From Flavobacteriales bacterium (GTDB lineage: Bacteria; Bacteroidota; Bacteroidia; Flavobacteriales_F; PHOS-HE28): 64,000 nucleotides of DNA. Every line of letters starts with the position of its first letter. Within the stretch, counting starts at the first letter, position 1. The stretch is taken from contig JAHBUK010000001.1 in NCBI GenBank assembly GCA_019638115.1, positions 512,238 through 576,237 on the forward strand, written 5' to 3'. The translations under genes and the position numbers were made by a program. This document shows, piece by piece, positions 1-5,448 of this stretch. The notes beneath the pieces were generated by a model that was given only the letters and a program-made list of their open reading frames with translations, was not told where the DNA came from and searched no databases.

Positions 1-129
1 GCGCAGCCGAGGAGGTTCAAGGTGTACGAGAAGGCGGGGACGCTACGGATCAGTGTGCAGGATGTGAAGAACGTTCAGGGGGCGAAGGCGGCGATGGAGA
101 GTGTGGTTGGGGTGAAGGAAAGCGTGTAG
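1..129 (+). CDS. 3' end of a CDS running off the window edge (…KVYEKAGTLRISVQDVKNVQGAKAAMESVVGVKESV*); function unknown
   Basis: Open frame from position 1 to TAG at 127-129, found by hand translation; not in the ORF track because it is partial. Confidence 0.3.
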   Translation, partial: AQPRRFKVYEKAGTLRISVQDVKNVQGAKAAMESVVGVKESV

Positions 130-258
130 GAGATTTGGGCGTTCCGGCGCTCAAATGCAGCGCCGTCGGGCCATTCGCTGCAAGTCCTCGCCTAAGAAGG
201 CTCCGGGCTTTCCGCTGCTGTCCCTAACGCGAAATGCCGTTCCGCACCAAGAATTGAA

Positions 259-2598
259 TTACACGACCCAACGAAGATTTCCGCATTGGCATTGTCTGCT
301 CGACCCAACTTGCGCATGCCAGATCTTCTTGCCGCAATCAACACACGCGAAAACCTTAAGCGCCGCCTCACAACTATCAAGGAGCTTTTCTGCCTCAGCA
401 TTGGTGACGTTGGTTGTGTGTGAACCACGATTGCCCCAAGTAACAAGAAGGCCGTCAGCAGTATGTAGGGTCGCCAAGCCGGCATCATCACGTATAAGCC
501 CGCTAGCAGCTTGTCGTTTCAGGGATTTCCTACCATCCGCGATTACGCGTTCAATGAACTGGTGAGCTTCGCGCATGTCATTCCTTTCCCCTCTCCGATA
601 TGGCAGTCTGAGTTCCAGCCTCTCCGCGATCATCGCGCACTCCGAGTCCATAATCTTCCGTGCATCATTCGCTGCAGAATCCGGGCGGTGAGGCAAATGG
701 TTCCTGGCGTCGGCAAATCGTGATGTTGTGTGCGACCAACGTATGCCGACAGAAGGGTTGTCGAAAGGAAGTAACATTTTGAATTGCCATTGGCTCGCGT
801 CGAGCTGGTGCTTCAGTTCAGCATACCAATCACGATCATGTGTGAAGATGATGACCTGCCGATCCTTGAACTTGGTGTTCAGTACGTCGGCTATCATTCC
901 GCGATGCTCTCGATCGAAACTCACTACCACATCGTCGAGGAAGAGCGGTTCATCCTTTCCATTGTCCGCCATGGCCATTGCGAGGAAAATACATAGCCCT
1001 AACCCATTACGATAACCCTCTGACAATGTAAGACGAGGAGACGCCTGACCAACACCATGGAACTTTAGGGCAATGTCAATTGCCTTATCGGATTCTTCCG
1101 GCATGTACAGATGAACATCCTCAATTGCCAAGCTCGGATGAATTTGCTTCCACAGGTCCTTTAGATCATTGGTAATCTGTTCAATCACCGCTACCGTTCT
1201 ATTGCGGATTTCAACACGGACTTCCTGTTCCACCCTTAAGACCATAGCCTCAAGATCATTTGCAGCCTTGAGAGTGCGTCGCCAAGTGCGCGATATCAGA
1301 AGTTCGGATATCAACTCAGCTTCTGCTTTGGCGTCGACAAGTTTCTTCACACTTGCAGGCGCAGACTCCGACGATTTCTTTGCTGCCGAGATGATAGGGG
1401 GCAAGAATTCCTCGATGCTCTTTAGGTCATCTTCGGCAATGGTTTCCCTCAGCGTTTGTATCATCAGGTCATCCACGTAGGACAAGCTGTCGCTGAGCCC
1501 GGCTTGGGTTTGTTCACCACGCCACGGTTGAAGCTCCTTCAACGCAGTAATACGTTTCACCAATGACAACGCATCGCAGAGCAACGCTCGTCCAGTTTTC
1601 AGAGCTTCATAGTCCTTTTTGACCCCTTCAAGTCGCGATTGCTCATTAGCGATGTGATTCTTGAAGGCCTCGGCGCTGACTTCTTTACCGCAAGCAGGGC
1701 AGTCCATGACCTCGATCTCGGTAGCCTCCTTTACGATGCGACTAGTAGCTGCGAGCACTTCAAGCTTCTCCACAATGAAAAACTCTCCAGAATCCACCAA
1801 CTTGTTGGCTGCTGACCGCAAGGTCAGAATCAGAGAATCGAGGTCCACACTCGCTATCTCCAACAGTCGAGCGTGGATGGTCTGCTCGAGTGTAAGGGCC
1901 TCCATCCTCTTGTCAATGGCCCGTAAAACTGCCGCACTCCGTTCCTCATCGGTTTGAACCTGGTCCTGTGCGCAGTACTCTGCAAACAGGCTCTGTAATA
2001 CGCCAAGTATCTCTGCGGCAGTTGCTGTACCAAACACCTTAGCGTTCTTGGCCTTTAGCTCATCAAGCTTCGCCTTCAATTCCGGAGTTCCAGCTTCGGT
2101 GCTGACCGCTTTGGCAAGGTGCTTAAGGTTTGTGGCTGTTGTCTCAAAATCACCGAGCCCAATGAGCGGCAATAGCGCGGAATACTTCGCTCCTTTGGTA
2201 CCATGGATGAACTGCGATACCTCGTCCTGCCGGAGAACAGTGCGTTGATAATCCCACGCTTGAATATGGGCGGTTCCATTCCCCCTGACTGACCAAGACC
2301 CATCTGGTCTAATATCGACTGTGTGAGTGGTTCCGTCTCCAAAAGCGAAGTGAAGCTGGGAGAATGTGCCAGTGGGGGCATGTGTGTTCCGTATTGAAAG
2401 AACCGACCTCGTTCCACTGTACTCGTGAGAAAGGTGCGCAATCTTGCCCGCTCTCGTAGCATGTTCGACTGCATCAATAAAGGATGACTTGCCAGCACCA
2501 TTTTGCCCATAAACGACCAATGACTTGCCGCCAGCCTCCAGCTCTACCATTTCGGCCGCCCCCCGAAACCATTCGAGGCCCAGTGTGCTCAACCTCAT
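259..2598 (-). CDS. SMC/RecN/Rad50-like ABC ATPase with a long central coiled coil, a ~190-aa C-terminal extension and a terminal CxxC…CxC zinc ribbon; putative defence-associated ATPase
   Basis: 779-aa ORF. N-terminal Walker A is GQNGAGKSS. A ~300-residue Glu/Leu/Lys-rich helical region follows. The ABC signature LSEGYRNGLGL, Walker B DEPLFLDDVVVSFD and H-loop IIFTHD come next. The C-terminus is CVDCGKK…CQCGN. The ATG overlaps the stop of the upstream small ORF (ATGA). Confidence 0.8.
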   Translation of the reverse strand: MRLSTLGLEWFRGAAEMVELEAGGKSLVVYGQNGAGKSSFIDAVEHATRAGKIAHLSHEYSGTRSVLSIRNTHAPTGTFSQLHFAFGDGTTHTVDIRPDGSWSVRGNGTAHIQAWDYQRTVLRQDEVSQFIHGTKGAKYSALLPLIGLGDFETTATNLKHLAKAVSTEAGTPELKAKLDELKAKNAKVFGTATAAEILGVLQSLFAEYCAQDQVQTDEERSAAVLRAIDKRMEALTLEQTIHARLLEIASVDLDSLILTLRSAANKLVDSGEFFIVEKLEVLAATSRIVKEATEIEVMDCPACGKEVSAEAFKNHIANEQSRLEGVKKDYEALKTGRALLCDALSLVKRITALKELQPWRGEQTQAGLSDSLSYVDDLMIQTLRETIAEDDLKSIEEFLPPIISAAKKSSESAPASVKKLVDAKAEAELISELLISRTWRRTLKAANDLEAMVLRVEQEVRVEIRNRTVAVIEQITNDLKDLWKQIHPSLAIEDVHLYMPEESDKAIDIALKFHGVGQASPRLTLSEGYRNGLGLCIFLAMAMADNGKDEPLFLDDVVVSFDREHRGMIADVLNTKFKDRQVIIFTHDRDWYAELKHQLDASQWQFKMLLPFDNPSVGIRWSHTTSRFADARNHLPHRPDSAANDARKIMDSECAMIAERLELRLPYRRGERNDMREAHQFIERVIADGRKSLKRQAASGLIRDDAGLATLHTADGLLVTWGNRGSHTTNVTNAEAEKLLDSCEAALKVFACVDCGKKIWHAQVGSSRQCQCGNLRWVV

Positions 2599-2813
2599 TG
2601 ATGGTCCGTGTTTGGCTTGTCTTTAGGTAGCATCGCGGCAAGAAGGCTCTTGGCCAGATGTGCTTGTTCTCTGGGAGTTGCTGCCCTTTTAGAGAGTATG
2701 CTCTTCACTTCCTCTACCAACAGTTCGACCACCCGGTCTGGGAGGTCGGGATTTGACTCCTTCGCTTTGGAAACAGAGCTTGATATCCAGTCCATGTTTA
2801 CGGGCTTGTACAT
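2595..2813 (-). CDS. Small hypothetical protein (72 aa, or 66 aa from the internal Met) translationally coupled to the downstream ABC ATPase
   Basis: Its TGA stop overlaps the ATG of the 779-aa gene (ATGA at 2595-2598). It has a charged helical composition. A competing plus-strand ORF at 2608-2832 has no such coupling. Confidence 0.45.
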   Translation of the reverse strand: MYKPVNMDWISSSVSKAKESNPDLPDRVVELLVEEVKSILSKRAATPREQAHLAKSLLAAMLPKDKPNTDHQ

Positions 2814-2907
2814 TATGCGAAACTACCTATGAAGCGCCACTTCTGAATGAGATCCACCGAGGCTTACTTTGCATTCCCCCGATAACTCCCATCTGAAGGA
2901 ACACCCC

Positions 2908-4320
2908 ATGAACGAGATCATCTGCCCGCACTGCGGCAAAGCCTTCAAGATCGATGAGGCCGGTTATGCGGACATCCTGAAGCAGGTGCGCGACCACGAA
3001 TTCGAGAAGACGATCCGCGAGCGACTGCAGATCGCCGAAAAGGAGAAGCGCACGGCCATCGAGCTTGCTGAAGCCAAGATCGCCGGACAGCTGCAGCAAG
3101 AAGCGGCGAAGAAGGACACGGAGATCGAGCGTTTGAAGTCCAGCTTGCACGCTGCCGAAGCGGCCAAGCAGTTGGCTCTGAAAGAGGCGCTGGGGGCGGT
3201 GGAGAAGGAGCGCGATGGCCTTGCGAACGAGTTGCAACAGATGCGACAAGCCAACAAGGCCGAAGCACAACTGGCCGAGCAGAAGCTGCTGAACGAACTG
3301 CAGAAAGCGGCAGCGACGAAGGAGGCGCAGATCCAGGAACTGAAGGCGAAGCTCGACGCGATCGAGGTGGAGAAGAAACTCGCGATCACCCAGGCGGTGA
3401 ATGCGGTGGAGAAGGAGCGCGATGAGCTGAAGAACGGACTGAAGCAAGTGGAACTAGAGAAGAAGCTGGCGGAGACGGCGCTGAAGGACAAGTACGAAAC
3501 GCAGCTCAAGGACCGGGACGATGCGATCGAACGCCTGAAGGACATGAAGGCGAAGCTGTCCACGAAGATGGTGGGCGAAACGCTGGAGCAGCACTGCGAG
3601 ATCGAGTTCGAGAAAATGCGTGCCACAGCGTTCCCGAAGGCCTTCTTCGAGAAGGACAACGATGCCAAGTCCGGCAGCAAGGGCGATTTCATCTTCCGCG
3701 ATACGGACGAGAGCGGGATCGAGGTGGTGTCGATCATGTTCGAGATGAAGAACGAGAACGATGGGACTGCCACCAAGAAGAAGAACGAGGACTTCCTGAA
3801 GGAACTGGACAAGGACCGGAATGAGAAGGGCTGCGAATACGCGGTGCTGGTATCGCTGCTGGAGCCCGAGAACGAGCTGTACAACGGGGGCATTGTGGAT
3901 GTGTCGCACCGCTTCCCGAAGATGTACGTGGTGCGCCCACAGTTCTTCATCCCGATCATCACCCTGCTGCGCAACGCCGCACAGAACTCACTGAAGTTCA
4001 AGACAGAGCTGGCACTGGTGAAGGCGCAGAACGTGGACATCACGAGCTTCGAGAGCGAATTGGAGGCCTTCAAGACCGCCTTTGGGCGGAACTATGACCT
4101 GGCCTCGCGCCACTTCCAAAAAGCCGTTGATGAGATCGACAAGTCGATCGATCATTTGCAGAAGACCAAGGACGCACTGTTGGGCACCGACCGCAACCTC
4201 CGGCTCGCGAACGACAAGGCGCAGGACGTGACGATCAAGAAGCTGACGCGCAAGAACCCGACGATGGCGGCGAAATTCGCGGAGCTGAAAAGGACCGAGA
4301 ACGAAGGTGAGGTGGGATAA
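2908..4320 (+). CDS. DUF2130 family protein: N-terminal zinc ribbon, long coiled coil, C-terminal PD-(D/E)xK nuclease-like domain
   Basis: The [13 protein letters not shown] start is typical of DUF2130. Residues ~25-230 are E/K/A/L-rich heptad-like. The C-terminus carries GDFIFRD…FEMKNE (a D…E-x-K motif). The upstream Met at 2869 is a possible alternative start. Confidence 0.8.
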
Positions 4321-4404
4321 CTTTTCCTGGGCTATACAACCCTCCGATGGCTTGGCAGTATTAAGTTGCTACCTGCACCTTGCCAGAAAGCCCGTCAACC
4401 ACCG

Positions 4405-5448
4405 ATGAACGCGTCCGACATCATCTTCTACACCACACCGCAGGGCGAGGTCCGCATCGAGGTCTACTTCGAGGAGGAGACCTTCTGGCTGAGCCAGAAG
4501 AAGATGGCCGAGCTCTTCGATGTGGAGGTGAACACGATCAATTACCACCTGAAGGAGATCTATAAAACCGCTGAGCTTCAGGAGGTGGCAACTATTCGAA
4601 AAATTCGAATAGTTCAACTGGAGGGAGGTCGCGAAGTAGCTCGGGACGTTGAGCACTACAATCTGGACGCGATCATAGCGGTGGGCTACCGGGTGAACAG
4701 CGCCCGCTCCACCAAGTTCCGGATCTGGGCCACGAACACGCTGAAGGAGTTCATCATCAAAGGTTTTGTGATGGACGATGCTCGCCTGAAGCAAGGCAAG
4801 CAATTCGGGCAGGACTACTTCGAGGAACTGCTGGAGCGCATCCGCGAGATCCGTGCGAGCGAACGGCGCTTCTATGAGAAGATCACGGACATTTACAAGG
4901 AGTGCAGTCGCGACTACGATGCCAACGATGAGGTAACGCGGCTGTTCTACAAGACGGTGCAGAACAAGTTGCATTGGGCCATTCACCACCATACCGCCGC
5001 TGAGCTGATCGCTGAACGCGCCAAGGCCGAGCTACCGCATATGGGGTTGACGACCTGGAAACATGCACCTGGAGGTAAAGTGCTGAAGAGCGATGTGACG
5101 GTGGCAAAAAACTACCTGAACGCCGAGGAGGTGACCGAGCTGGACCGCATCGTGAGCATGTATCTGGACTACGCCGAGAACCAAGCCAAACGCGGCATTA
5201 CGATGTACATGAAGGATTGGGCAGGTAAGCTGGATGCCTTCCTGCAATTCAACGATTACAATGTGCTGAAGGACGCCGGAAAGGTGAGCCATGATGTGGC
5301 TGTGAAACTGGCCGAGGGCGAGTACGAAAAGTTCCGCGTGCGTCAGGACCGAGATTACATCAGCGATTTCAACAAGGAGGTGAAGCGGCTGGAAGGTGGA
5401 AAAGCCCATCCGGACAAGAACAAGCGGGCTTCGGGTACGAAGAAGTAG
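4405..5448 (+). CDS. RhuM-family (virulence-protein RhuM-like) protein
   Basis: The block YNLDAIIAVGYRVNSARSTKFRIWATNTLKEFIIKGFVMDDARLKQG is diagnostic of the RhuM family. I placed the start at MNASDIIFY rather than the upstream Met at 4366. Confidence 0.85.
   Translation: MNASDIIFYTTPQGEVRIEVYFEEETFWLSQKKMAELFDVEVNTINYHLKEIYKTAELQEVATIRKIRIVQLEGGREVARDVEHYNLDAIIAVGYRVNSARSTKFRIWATNTLKEFIIKGFVMDDARLKQGKQFGQDYFEELLERIREIRASERRFYEKITDIYKECSRDYDANDEVTRLFYKTVQNKLHWAIHHHTAAELIAERAKAELPHMGLTTWKHAPGGKVLKSDVTVAKNYLNAEEVTELDRIVSMYLDYAENQAKRGITMYMKDWAGKLDAFLQFNDYNVLKDAGKVSHDVAVKLAEGEYEKFRVRQDRDYISDFNKEVKRLEGGKAHPDKNKRASGTKK

Follow-up and report, generated by a model that had tools for sequence, protein, structure and literature searches.

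What is encoded by a pair of overlapping genes in which a very small protein is coupled to a large coiled-coil ATPase, and does such a pair belong to the antiviral machinery of its host? The question is raised by a locus at the beginning of a 64,000-nucleotide (nt) stretch of DNA from a Flavobacteriales bacterium (assembly GCA_019638115.1, contig JAHBUK010000001.1, positions 512,238–576,237 of the forward strand), termed here the window. A first-pass annotation, made from the sequence alone, had described both open reading frames (ORFs), between positions 259 and 2,813, and proposed that they form a candidate uncharacterised defence system; the two frames, which lie on the minus strand, their coordinates and the ATGA overlap between them were all recovered (Table 1). 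It is now accepted that ATPases of the SMC and Rad50-like kinds serve as innate sensors of foreign DNA, e.g., in Lamassu, Wadjet and RloC, and how they are coupled to effectors is still being worked out. From the analysis described below, the pair is probably related to the RloC and Lamassu anti-phage systems but has no name of its own. What appears to be new, judging from the sequences compared, is that a sensor of the RloC/Lamassu type has both a fused effector, predicted to be of the HEPN class, and an obligate small partner of a new family; the combination is found widely but rarely.

The large protein carries a Rad50-type zinc-hook coiled coil and belongs to the Rad50/LmuB class of ATP-binding cassette (ABC) ATPases. 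Conservation and pairing were assessed on the 64 loci in which the ATPase is intact (median pairwise identity of the ATPases, 43%). All residues of the ABC motifs as well as the hook cysteines are invariant or nearly so in this set, and for this reason the ATPase is expected to be active. The SMC/Rad50-like architecture put forward in the first-pass annotation is in agreement with the Pfam matches (SMC_N, E 8e-13; AAA_13, 41.6 bits with a cut-off of 36; several further P-loop families) and with the location of every ABC motif. The coiled coil is short, about 340 residues, and conservation along the protein is lowest in its arms (~30% identity). It had been read without a hook, so that the invariant CPxCG motif at residues 300–304 was overlooked; it is this region (ATPase residues 280–335) that the NCBIfam model Rad50_Sulf aligns with, at model positions 406–461. 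The AlphaFold2 (AF2) model of the full-length ATPase, built from an alignment of 30 sequences (predicted local distance difference test score, pLDDT, 79.8), was matched by Foldseek to structures of SMC, Rad50 and LmuB with E 5e-13 to 1e-9, the LmuB structures 9hqu and 9hqx being found at about E 1e-9. By sequence profile, the closest solved chains in the PDB are Rad50 heads (E 2e-7).

The best matches of the ATPase among the PADLOC models (release v2, 2023) are to LmuB, namely PDLC03865 (E 4e-23) and PDLC03859 (E 3e-21), the latter aligning ATPase residues 122–594 with positions 154–590 of 611. These matches speak for homology to LmuB, not for orthology. Further PADLOC matches were obtained with mad3 of the MADS system (E 2e-11) and with PDC-S06 (E 2e-14), which is limited to the C-terminal ABC lobe. 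The PDC-S06 profiles have about 850 positions with the ABC lobe at ~620–700, a layout that resembles that of RloC, and the mad2 model is matched by four neighbour proteins (neighbour set A3). GajA of Gabija and the related OLD proteins, PtuA of Septu and JetC of Wadjet were considered and excluded, as the ATPase has no Toprim or HNH domain and the pair has no conserved partner genes; the PADLOC matches to these families cover only the N-terminal P-loop (E 1e-3 to 1e-6). The statement of the first-pass annotation that the locus matches no known system holds in the sense that the pair has no name in PADLOC v2 (2023), Pfam, NCBIfam or the searchable literature, the 2020 ABC-ATPase classification being outside the scope of this search. 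It does not hold in so far as the likeness to RloC in domain plan, and to LmuB in sequence, is close. The RloC model of DefenseFinder might capture the pair.

What is then attached to the second ABC lobe? A separate model of residues 600–779 (pLDDT 77.7; predicted template modelling score 0.76) shows four long helices, the second and third of which are separated by a β-hairpin; a small zinc ribbon comes after them. The arrangement is that of a four-helix HEPN fold, and we consider with good, though fold-level, confidence that the domain is a HEPN domain. Since it has this fold, the domain is predicted to be a metal-independent ribonuclease (RNase). Residues R647, D651, N673, R676, H727 and E735 are invariant; 62 of the 64 sequences keep N723, and 61 have either R or K at position 724. 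Weak Pfam matches to HEPN_Swt1 and DUF4145 are placed at the motif region. Variant HEPN families with arginines located elsewhere have been described (PMC3710099). The ribbon gives weak Pfam matches to DUF1922, LysW and GRF; its four cysteines had been recognised in the first-pass annotation, with a spacer of 15 residues that in fact comprises 14 (C755-x14-C770). The same annotation was right that Toprim and HNH motifs are missing, as Pfam scans of the ATPase found neither domain, yet where it had seen no effector, a HEPN RNase is predicted. An exhaustive HMMER search of 1.84 billion representative proteins with a profile of the C-terminal domain returned 198 proteins, all of this architecture: 58 full-length clusters share its layout, and what remains are collinear fragments. 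Within that search space, the combination of HEPN domain and zinc ribbon is exclusive to this architecture. PrrC-like short forms of the family were also considered and rejected, every shorter database match being a collinear fragment.

The closest published counterpart in domain plan is RloC, a Rad50-like anticodon nuclease (Davidov and Kaufmann, 2008; Klaiman et al., 2012), with which the module, as with PrrC, was compared through published descriptions and library profiles. Both RloC and the ATPase described here combine, in one polypeptide of about 800 residues, an ABC head, a coiled coil with a CxxC hook and a C-terminal RNase domain of the HEPN class (in the present case a predicted one); both match Pfam AAA_13, and both are sporadic and laterally transferred. 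The catalytic triads of PrrC (R320, E324, H356) and RloC (R692, E696, H737) were validated experimentally, in RloC by mutation (PMC2610378), and the R647-x3-D651...H727 arrangement of the family parallels both. The residue four positions after the arginine is D in the main family and E in RloC, whereas a plasmid-borne sister subfamily, described below, has R-x3-E exactly. The spacing between R and H differs as well, 80 residues in the module versus 45 in RloC, and the AAA_13 alignment (profile positions 389–587 of 713) ends at ATPase residue 605, i.e., before the C-terminal domain. Unlike RloC, the module has an extra C-terminal CxxC...CxC zinc ribbon, and its family is found also in archaea and in the candidate phyla radiation (CPR). 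The main difference concerns regulation: RloC is described as autonomous, being transferred "without an external silencer," whereas the module is always accompanied by a coupled partner of about 66 residues (64 of 64 loci). The nuclease of RloC is an ATP- and DNA-stimulated tRNase that excises the wobble nucleotide. Its activation by the RloC ATPase depends on DNA, a switch that is bypassed when the hook is mutated (PMC3458546); RloC sometimes adjoins RhuM-like genes (PMC3710099). PrrC and other ABC–HEPN fusions (APECO1_4465, ERFG_01251; Anantharaman et al., 2013) share the arrangement in which an ABC ATPase regulates a C-terminal HEPN RNase in a context of biological conflict. However, PrrC has neither coiled coil nor hook and is tied to a type Ic restriction-modification locus, while the module shows no hsd linkage.

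The second relationship, to Lamassu, is in the ATPase itself and in gene order. Beyond the PADLOC matches, the hook of the ATPase consists of one CxxC and its Walker B motif is of the hhhhDD type, and it is the long Lamassu LmuB, with one CxxC, that has hhhhDD as its consensus (PMC12663957). LmuB together with LmuC senses DNA ends and releases the effector, and LmuC is encoded just before LmuB, in the same way as the SbcD C-terminal domain precedes SbcC (PMC12663957). The small gene of the module lies directly upstream of the SMC-like gene, thus in the position of LmuC, and control of a toxic nuclease by an SMC-like sensor of DNA would, as far as the genes alone suggest, be the logic of both systems. 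The coverage of the module ATPase by the LmuB hidden Markov models is nevertheless partial. In contrast to Lamassu, there is no separate LmuA gene, the effector being fused to the C-terminus of the ATPase, and this effector is a predicted RNase, not Cap4, Mrr, Sir2 or a protease. Known LmuC proteins are far larger than the ~66-residue partner, which has no detectable homology to LmuC models.

The small protein was described in the first-pass annotation as a co-translated partner, and the survey of loci bears this out. Every one of the 64 intact loci has a small ORF on the same strand whose end falls just within the ATPase gene, with an overlap of 4 nt in 33 and of 11 nt in 21 of them. The small proteins form a real family, obligately paired and co-evolving with the ATPase. 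The family pattern is approximately W-[IV]-x3-[IV]-x2-A...P-x-V-x3-V-x3-L-x2-LL-x-G-x-LSE-x2-L-x4-L-x3-A-x2-LI-x2-M; the tail that comes after it varies and is often acidic. A profile made from 62 other loci, with the window copy and its closest relative (locus L001) left out, matches the small ORF of the window with 52 bits (E 5e-15), compared with 11 bits for the best of 2000 shuffles and 6 bits for the best of 851 other six-frame segments of the window. Pairwise identities of the small protein and of the ATPase are correlated (Mantel r = 0.74; none of 2000 permutations reached this value), and with mean identities of 22 and 44%, respectively, the small protein diverges about twice as fast. 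A database-wide profile search found nine stand-alone small proteins of 65–72 residues and no fusions.

Might the small ORF be a regulatory upstream ORF, a leader or a chance frame that yields no functional partner? To this we give almost no credence. It is true that the small protein has no credible match in Pfam, PADLOC, PHROGs or PDB profiles, that the first, word-based homology search recovered only the query itself, and that another start codon is given for the ATPase in the NCBI record. A leader or chance frame would not, however, be expected to show an amino-acid pattern that is conserved across phyla and domains, the profile score given above, co-evolution with the ATPase or the uniform length of the database matches. 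The codons argue in the same direction: out of 66, the window and L001 differ at 20 codons by synonymous changes only and at 28 by non-synonymous ones. The first-pass annotation had regarded absence or lack of conservation of the small ORF as fatal to its proposal, and what was found is its presence at every intact locus.

As to the role of the small protein, two possibilities appear about equally likely from the sequences. The gene order, the coupling, the faster evolution and the constant presence alongside an intact ATPase would favour an antitoxin-like brake, whereas a minimal LmuC-like adaptor would fit the place of the gene and the relationship of the ATPase to LmuB. The protein is predicted to be helical and is mildly acidic; since the family has a median pI of about 5.2 and no basic residues stand out as conserved, DNA binding by it seems unlikely.

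Taken together with the analogy to RloC and Lamassu, it seems on balance probable that the module is a DNA-sensing SMC-like switch that gates a fused RNase, with the small protein acting as inhibitor or adaptor; by the same analogy, we infer a role in defence. In such a mechanism the ATPase–HEPN protein would dimerise through the hook and the ATP-engaged heads, the heads would sense an abnormal state of DNA, e.g., free DNA ends or phage replication intermediates, and ATP binding or hydrolysis would turn on the fused HEPN RNase. Because HEPN RNases usually require dimerisation, head engagement would be an obvious route to pair two HEPN domains. Cleavage of tRNA or other RNA would then stop translation, so that infection would be aborted or growth arrested. 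The small protein would be the obligate regulator, either as an antitoxin-like inhibitor of the RNase or of the switch or, alternatively, as a minimal adaptor that occupies the gene position of LmuC and the SbcD C-terminal domain and tunes DNA sensing. A broader proposal, which we offer tentatively and hold at slightly less than even weight, is that bacteria, archaea and CPR share, in this pair, an autonomous two-gene immune or abortive-infection system: a "one-polypeptide Lamassu" in which a Rad50-like zinc-hook sensor of DNA would directly gate the RNase carried on its own head, the effector would target RNA, and a protein of about 66 residues would be the obligate brake or adaptor.

Several points weigh against this mechanism. 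Four-helix bundles are easily over-interpreted and the HEPN assignment is made at the level of fold only. In the Foldseek comparison that the first-pass annotation had called for, a HEPN protein, TM0613, is the top match of the C-terminal domain (Foldseek probability 0.89), but the E value, 0.36, is not significant. The domain lacks the canonical Rx4-6H motif, its place being taken by N723-[R/K]724-x-[S/T]726-H727 with two residues between R/K and H, and the HMMER search gave no link from the C-terminal domain to RloC, PrrC or any other architecture. The genomic surroundings offer little help, as the 114 nearest neighbours examined with Pfam and PADLOC are mostly housekeeping enzymes with scattered defence and mobile genes (BrxC/D, BrxH, DrmA/D, methyltransferases, HEPN_AbiV, RmuC, transposases). 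Enrichment in defence islands was rejected as evidence, the neighbour picture being mixed and too weak, and the defence-island argument that the first-pass annotation drew from DUF2130 and RhuM beside the pair is not general. No copies of the module were found in phage or viral collections. Finally, the anti-phage role of RloC itself is mostly inferred in the literature.

The missing motif and the non-significant Foldseek support for HEPN would also fit a HEPN-like domain that is non-catalytic, a module for nucleic-acid binding or dimerisation to which the zinc ribbon contributes, in a complex that serves as a Rad50- or Lamassu-like DNA sensor or clamp and recruits a nuclease in trans, e.g., DUF2130 or RmuC. 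Some HEPN domains are indeed non-catalytic binders (PMC3710099), and a DUF2130 or RmuC gene is adjacent in 6 of 64 loci. We nevertheless regard this explanation as rather doubtful: the seven polar or charged residues that are invariant in 64 bacterial and archaeal sequences, including the PrrC/RloC-like R-x3-D/E...H, look more like those of an enzyme than of a scaffold, a DUF2130 or RmuC neighbour is missing from the other 58 loci, and conservation extends to no other partner gene.

A different reading of the gene pair is that of a toxin–antitoxin or addiction module with no dedicated anti-phage role, in which the small acidic protein would be the labile antitoxin of an ATPase–HEPN toxin and the pair would persist by stabilising mobile elements or by answering DNA-damage stress. 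The order of the genes, a small one first and an overlapping large one second, is typical of type II systems, no intact ATPase occurs without the small ORF, the rate of evolution of the small protein is about double that of the ATPase, and HEPN toxins with protein antitoxins are common (PMC3710099). The module resembles HEPN/MNT and RnlA/RnlB pairs in having a HEPN-fold effector and a small co-transcribed, possibly neutralising, protein. However, its partner is not a nucleotidyltransferase of the MNT type, no similarity between it and known antitoxins could be detected, and the toxin would carry a complete SMC-like sensor. A sensor-like ATPase of 600 residues, with conserved motifs and hook, is unnecessary for a simple toxin–antitoxin pair, and the closest analogues, RloC and Lamassu, are sensors of infection or DNA damage. 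We consider this explanation improbable but worth keeping in view; since toxin–antitoxin function and abortive infection are not mutually exclusive, it overlaps with the proposed DNA-sensing switch.

Copies on plasmids form a sister subfamily, represented by L083 (4398–7005; Aliiroseovarius crassostreae plasmid NZ_CP080785.1) and L084 (4203–6813; Brucella anthropi plasmid NZ_CP008817.1). Its ATPase of about 799 residues matches the ATPase profile from end to end (E ~1e-85), with ~26% identity over the C-terminal half, and contains a CPFC hook, an LVLDD Walker B motif, the stretches R-K-L-L-E, N-E-K-R and N-L-D-S-H, and the CxxC...CxC ribbon. A RefSeq-annotated gene for 71–73 residues overlaps the start of this ATPase, giving the same layout, and the small proteins of the sister subfamily show no detectable homology to the main small-protein family. 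The neighbours include Tn7-like TniQ/TniB/transposase genes, insertion sequence genes, recombinases, a Phd-type antitoxin gene, repAB and rep/par genes, and it is this company of replication and partition genes, recombinases and another antitoxin gene that favours the toxin–antitoxin explanation.

How is the module distributed? More than 500 homologues of the ATPase are present in the protein collection, and among the matches listed the length is strikingly uniform, about 785 residues, and the identity about 45%; the window protein is 100% identical to that of a Flavobacteriales metagenome-assembled genome (MAG). In a survey of 185,579 species, with one genome per species, at least 85 relatives were counted (a lower bound), in many bacterial phyla, CPR and archaea, with identities of 32–49% irrespective of taxonomy. 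The archaeal hosts include Methanophagales, Bathyarchaeia, Hadesarchaea and Thermoplasmatota. A third conserved component was looked for by clustering 2,861 neighbour ORFs of the 64 loci and was rejected: the best cluster reached 5 loci, and the recurrent clusters are generic, e.g., transporters, dehydrogenases and transposases. The surroundings are thus variable, as the first-pass annotation had suggested checking. Because of the scattered distribution, the variable neighbours, the plasmid copies and the low guanine-cytosine (GC) content, we conclude that the module is self-contained, horizontally mobile and patchily inherited.

These data bear directly on whether the ATPase is a divergent Rad50, SbcC or RecN with a housekeeping role in DNA repair or recombination. 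Like Rad50/SbcC, the module ATPase has an ABC head and an antiparallel coiled coil with a CxxC zinc hook; Rad50 heads are its best solved relatives by sequence, the best PHROG match is SbcC-like and homologues are annotated at source as RecF or SbcC. Yet no Mre11/SbcD or other conserved partner is encoded nearby, and no metallophosphatase appears among the top neighbour Pfam families of the 64 loci. The coiled coil is much shorter than in Rad50/SbcC, Walker B ends in DD and not in DE, and a HEPN domain with zinc ribbon is fused to the ATPase. The distribution is sporadic and outside the core genome, identities between domains of life are about 45%, synteny is variable, copies are found on plasmids and beside transposons, and the GC content of the locus is atypically low. 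A housekeeping RecN/SbcC protein in core-genome synteny, which the first-pass annotation had set against its own proposal, is therefore very improbable.

If the proposed DNA-sensing switch is correct, the module is of interest beyond annotation. With the effector fused to the head and one tiny partner, it would be a minimal two-protein system, simpler to reconstitute than the three-protein Lamassu, and it could reveal whether head engagement activates a dimerisation-dependent nuclease. If head engagement does dimerise the HEPN domains, the module would provide a compact and tractable model of how the cycle of an SMC-type ATPase is turned into enzymatic output. It adds an unnamed family of small proteins and would extend RloC-like logic to archaea and CPR, and, should the C-terminal domain prove to be an RNase that has a defined tRNA target, it may become a useful tool enzyme. 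There is also a gap in annotation to be closed, as members carry generic labels (among the matches listed, "AAA family ATPase," "RecF," "EcfA2," "SbcC/S27AE" and "hypothetical") and the small gene is often uncalled.

Table 1. Features of the two-gene module and of its two neighbours (positions in the window; residues numbered in the 779-residue ATPase).
Feature	Residues	Position	Strand	Basis
Small partner gene		2595..2813	-	72 aa from first ATG; stop overlaps ATPase ATG (ATGA)
ABC ATPase gene, Rad50/SMC/LmuB class, with predicted HEPN domain and zinc ribbon	1-779	259..2598	-	779 aa; stop codon 259-261 included
N-terminal ABC lobe	1-146	2161..2598	-	Pfam SMC_N, AAA_23, AAA_29; AF2 model
Walker A, GQNGAGKS	G31-S38	2485..2508	-	Motif residues invariant in 64 sequences
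Q-loop	Q124	within N-terminal ABC lobe	-	Invariant in 64 sequences
Ascending coiled-coil arm	149-294	1717..2154	-	AF2 helices
Zinc-hook hairpin	297-308	1675..1710	-	β-hairpin at apex of AF2 model
Hook motif, C300-P-A-C303-G304	300-304	1690..1701	-	C300, P301, C303, G304 invariant (64/64)
Descending coiled-coil arm	309-486	1141..1674	-	AF2; Pfam AAA_13 and PADLOC LmuB alignments cross the region
C-terminal ABC lobe	492-611	766..1125	-	Motif conservation; matches to Rad50-head profiles
ABC signature, LSEGYRNGLGL	L525-L535	994..1026	-	Invariant motif
Walker B, LFLDD (hhhhDD type)	552-556	931..948	-	Invariant motif
H-loop, THDR	H587	832..843	-	Invariant motif
HEPN-fold domain (fold-level assignment)	628-748	355..717	-	Four helices and β-hairpin insert
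C-terminal zinc ribbon, C752-x2-C755-x14-C770-x-C772, W777	749-779	262..354	-	Cysteines conserved in 63-64 of 64
DUF2130 protein: N-terminal CxxC, coiled coil, DUF2130 domain		2869..4320	+	Divergent neighbour; Pfam E 3e-88
RhuM-family gene, PADLOC candidate PDC-S05		4366..5448	+	Pfam E 3e-114; PDC-S05 E 3e-160

In the window, the ATPase ATG and the stop codon of the small ORF overlap by 4 nt in the context caATGAgg. The alignment with L001 suggests that the conserved start of the small ORF is M7 (ATG at 2795; window 2793–2813), which gives 66 residues. The public record of the identical ATPase (P0001, 777 residues) starts instead at a TTG, 6 nt further downstream than the ATG, and in this way conceals the ATGA overlap (window 2593–2598); from the comparative data, the ATG is favoured over the TTG as the start. 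The small ORF itself is present in the protein collection from a sole source, a Logan assembly (P0121). A convergent gene ends at about position 129, so that the operon comprises only two genes. Scans of the locus with Rfam, for tRNA and for promoters and terminators gave nothing above background, the promoter scan lacking Bacteroidota promoter types; no tRNA was found in the first 20 kb of the window, and the upstream regions of the window and of L001 could not be aligned beyond the start codon.

The GC content is 49–53% in the module, 55–58% in the stretch with the DUF2130 and RhuM genes, 60–67% in the genes that follow and about 60% in the remaining window, which suggests that the low-GC stretch (window 1–5400) is a horizontally acquired island; its left edge falls beyond the window. 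The identity of both neighbours, as given in the first-pass annotation, is confirmed by Pfam (Table 1). The RhuM-family gene is not part of the module and is a neighbour within the same low-GC stretch; RhuM is absent from the recurrent neighbour clusters and from the listed neighbour families at the other 63 loci. RhuM-like genes often accompany ABC–HEPN genes of the PrrC and RloC types (PMC3710099). The DUF2130 gene is probably not part of the module either, because it is adjacent in only 3 of 64 loci.

When RmuC is included, a coiled-coil gene of one of these two families (3 loci each), which we take to be both of the PD-(D/E)xK nuclease type, adjoins the pair in varying orientation: window 2869–4320 (+), L001 4466–5767, L021 6186–7589, L016 10400–11872, and also L043 and L069. 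The association is weak but may be non-random. The DUF2130 ORF of L001 gives weak PADLOC matches to the coiled coil of LmuB.

Two further observations were made across the fetched loci. The ATPase frame is interrupted in about 11 of 80 (L014, L033, L047, L048, L049, L067, L071, L072, L077, L078 and L080); these could be pseudogenes, which are common among toxic defence genes, or frameshift errors of MAG assembly. In 5 loci, one of them archaeal, a superfamily 1 helicase of about 1,100 residues (AAA_11/AAA_12) with an RNase_H_2 domain is encoded within about 4 kb of the pair (L009 20–3349, and also L020, L025, L027 and L053).

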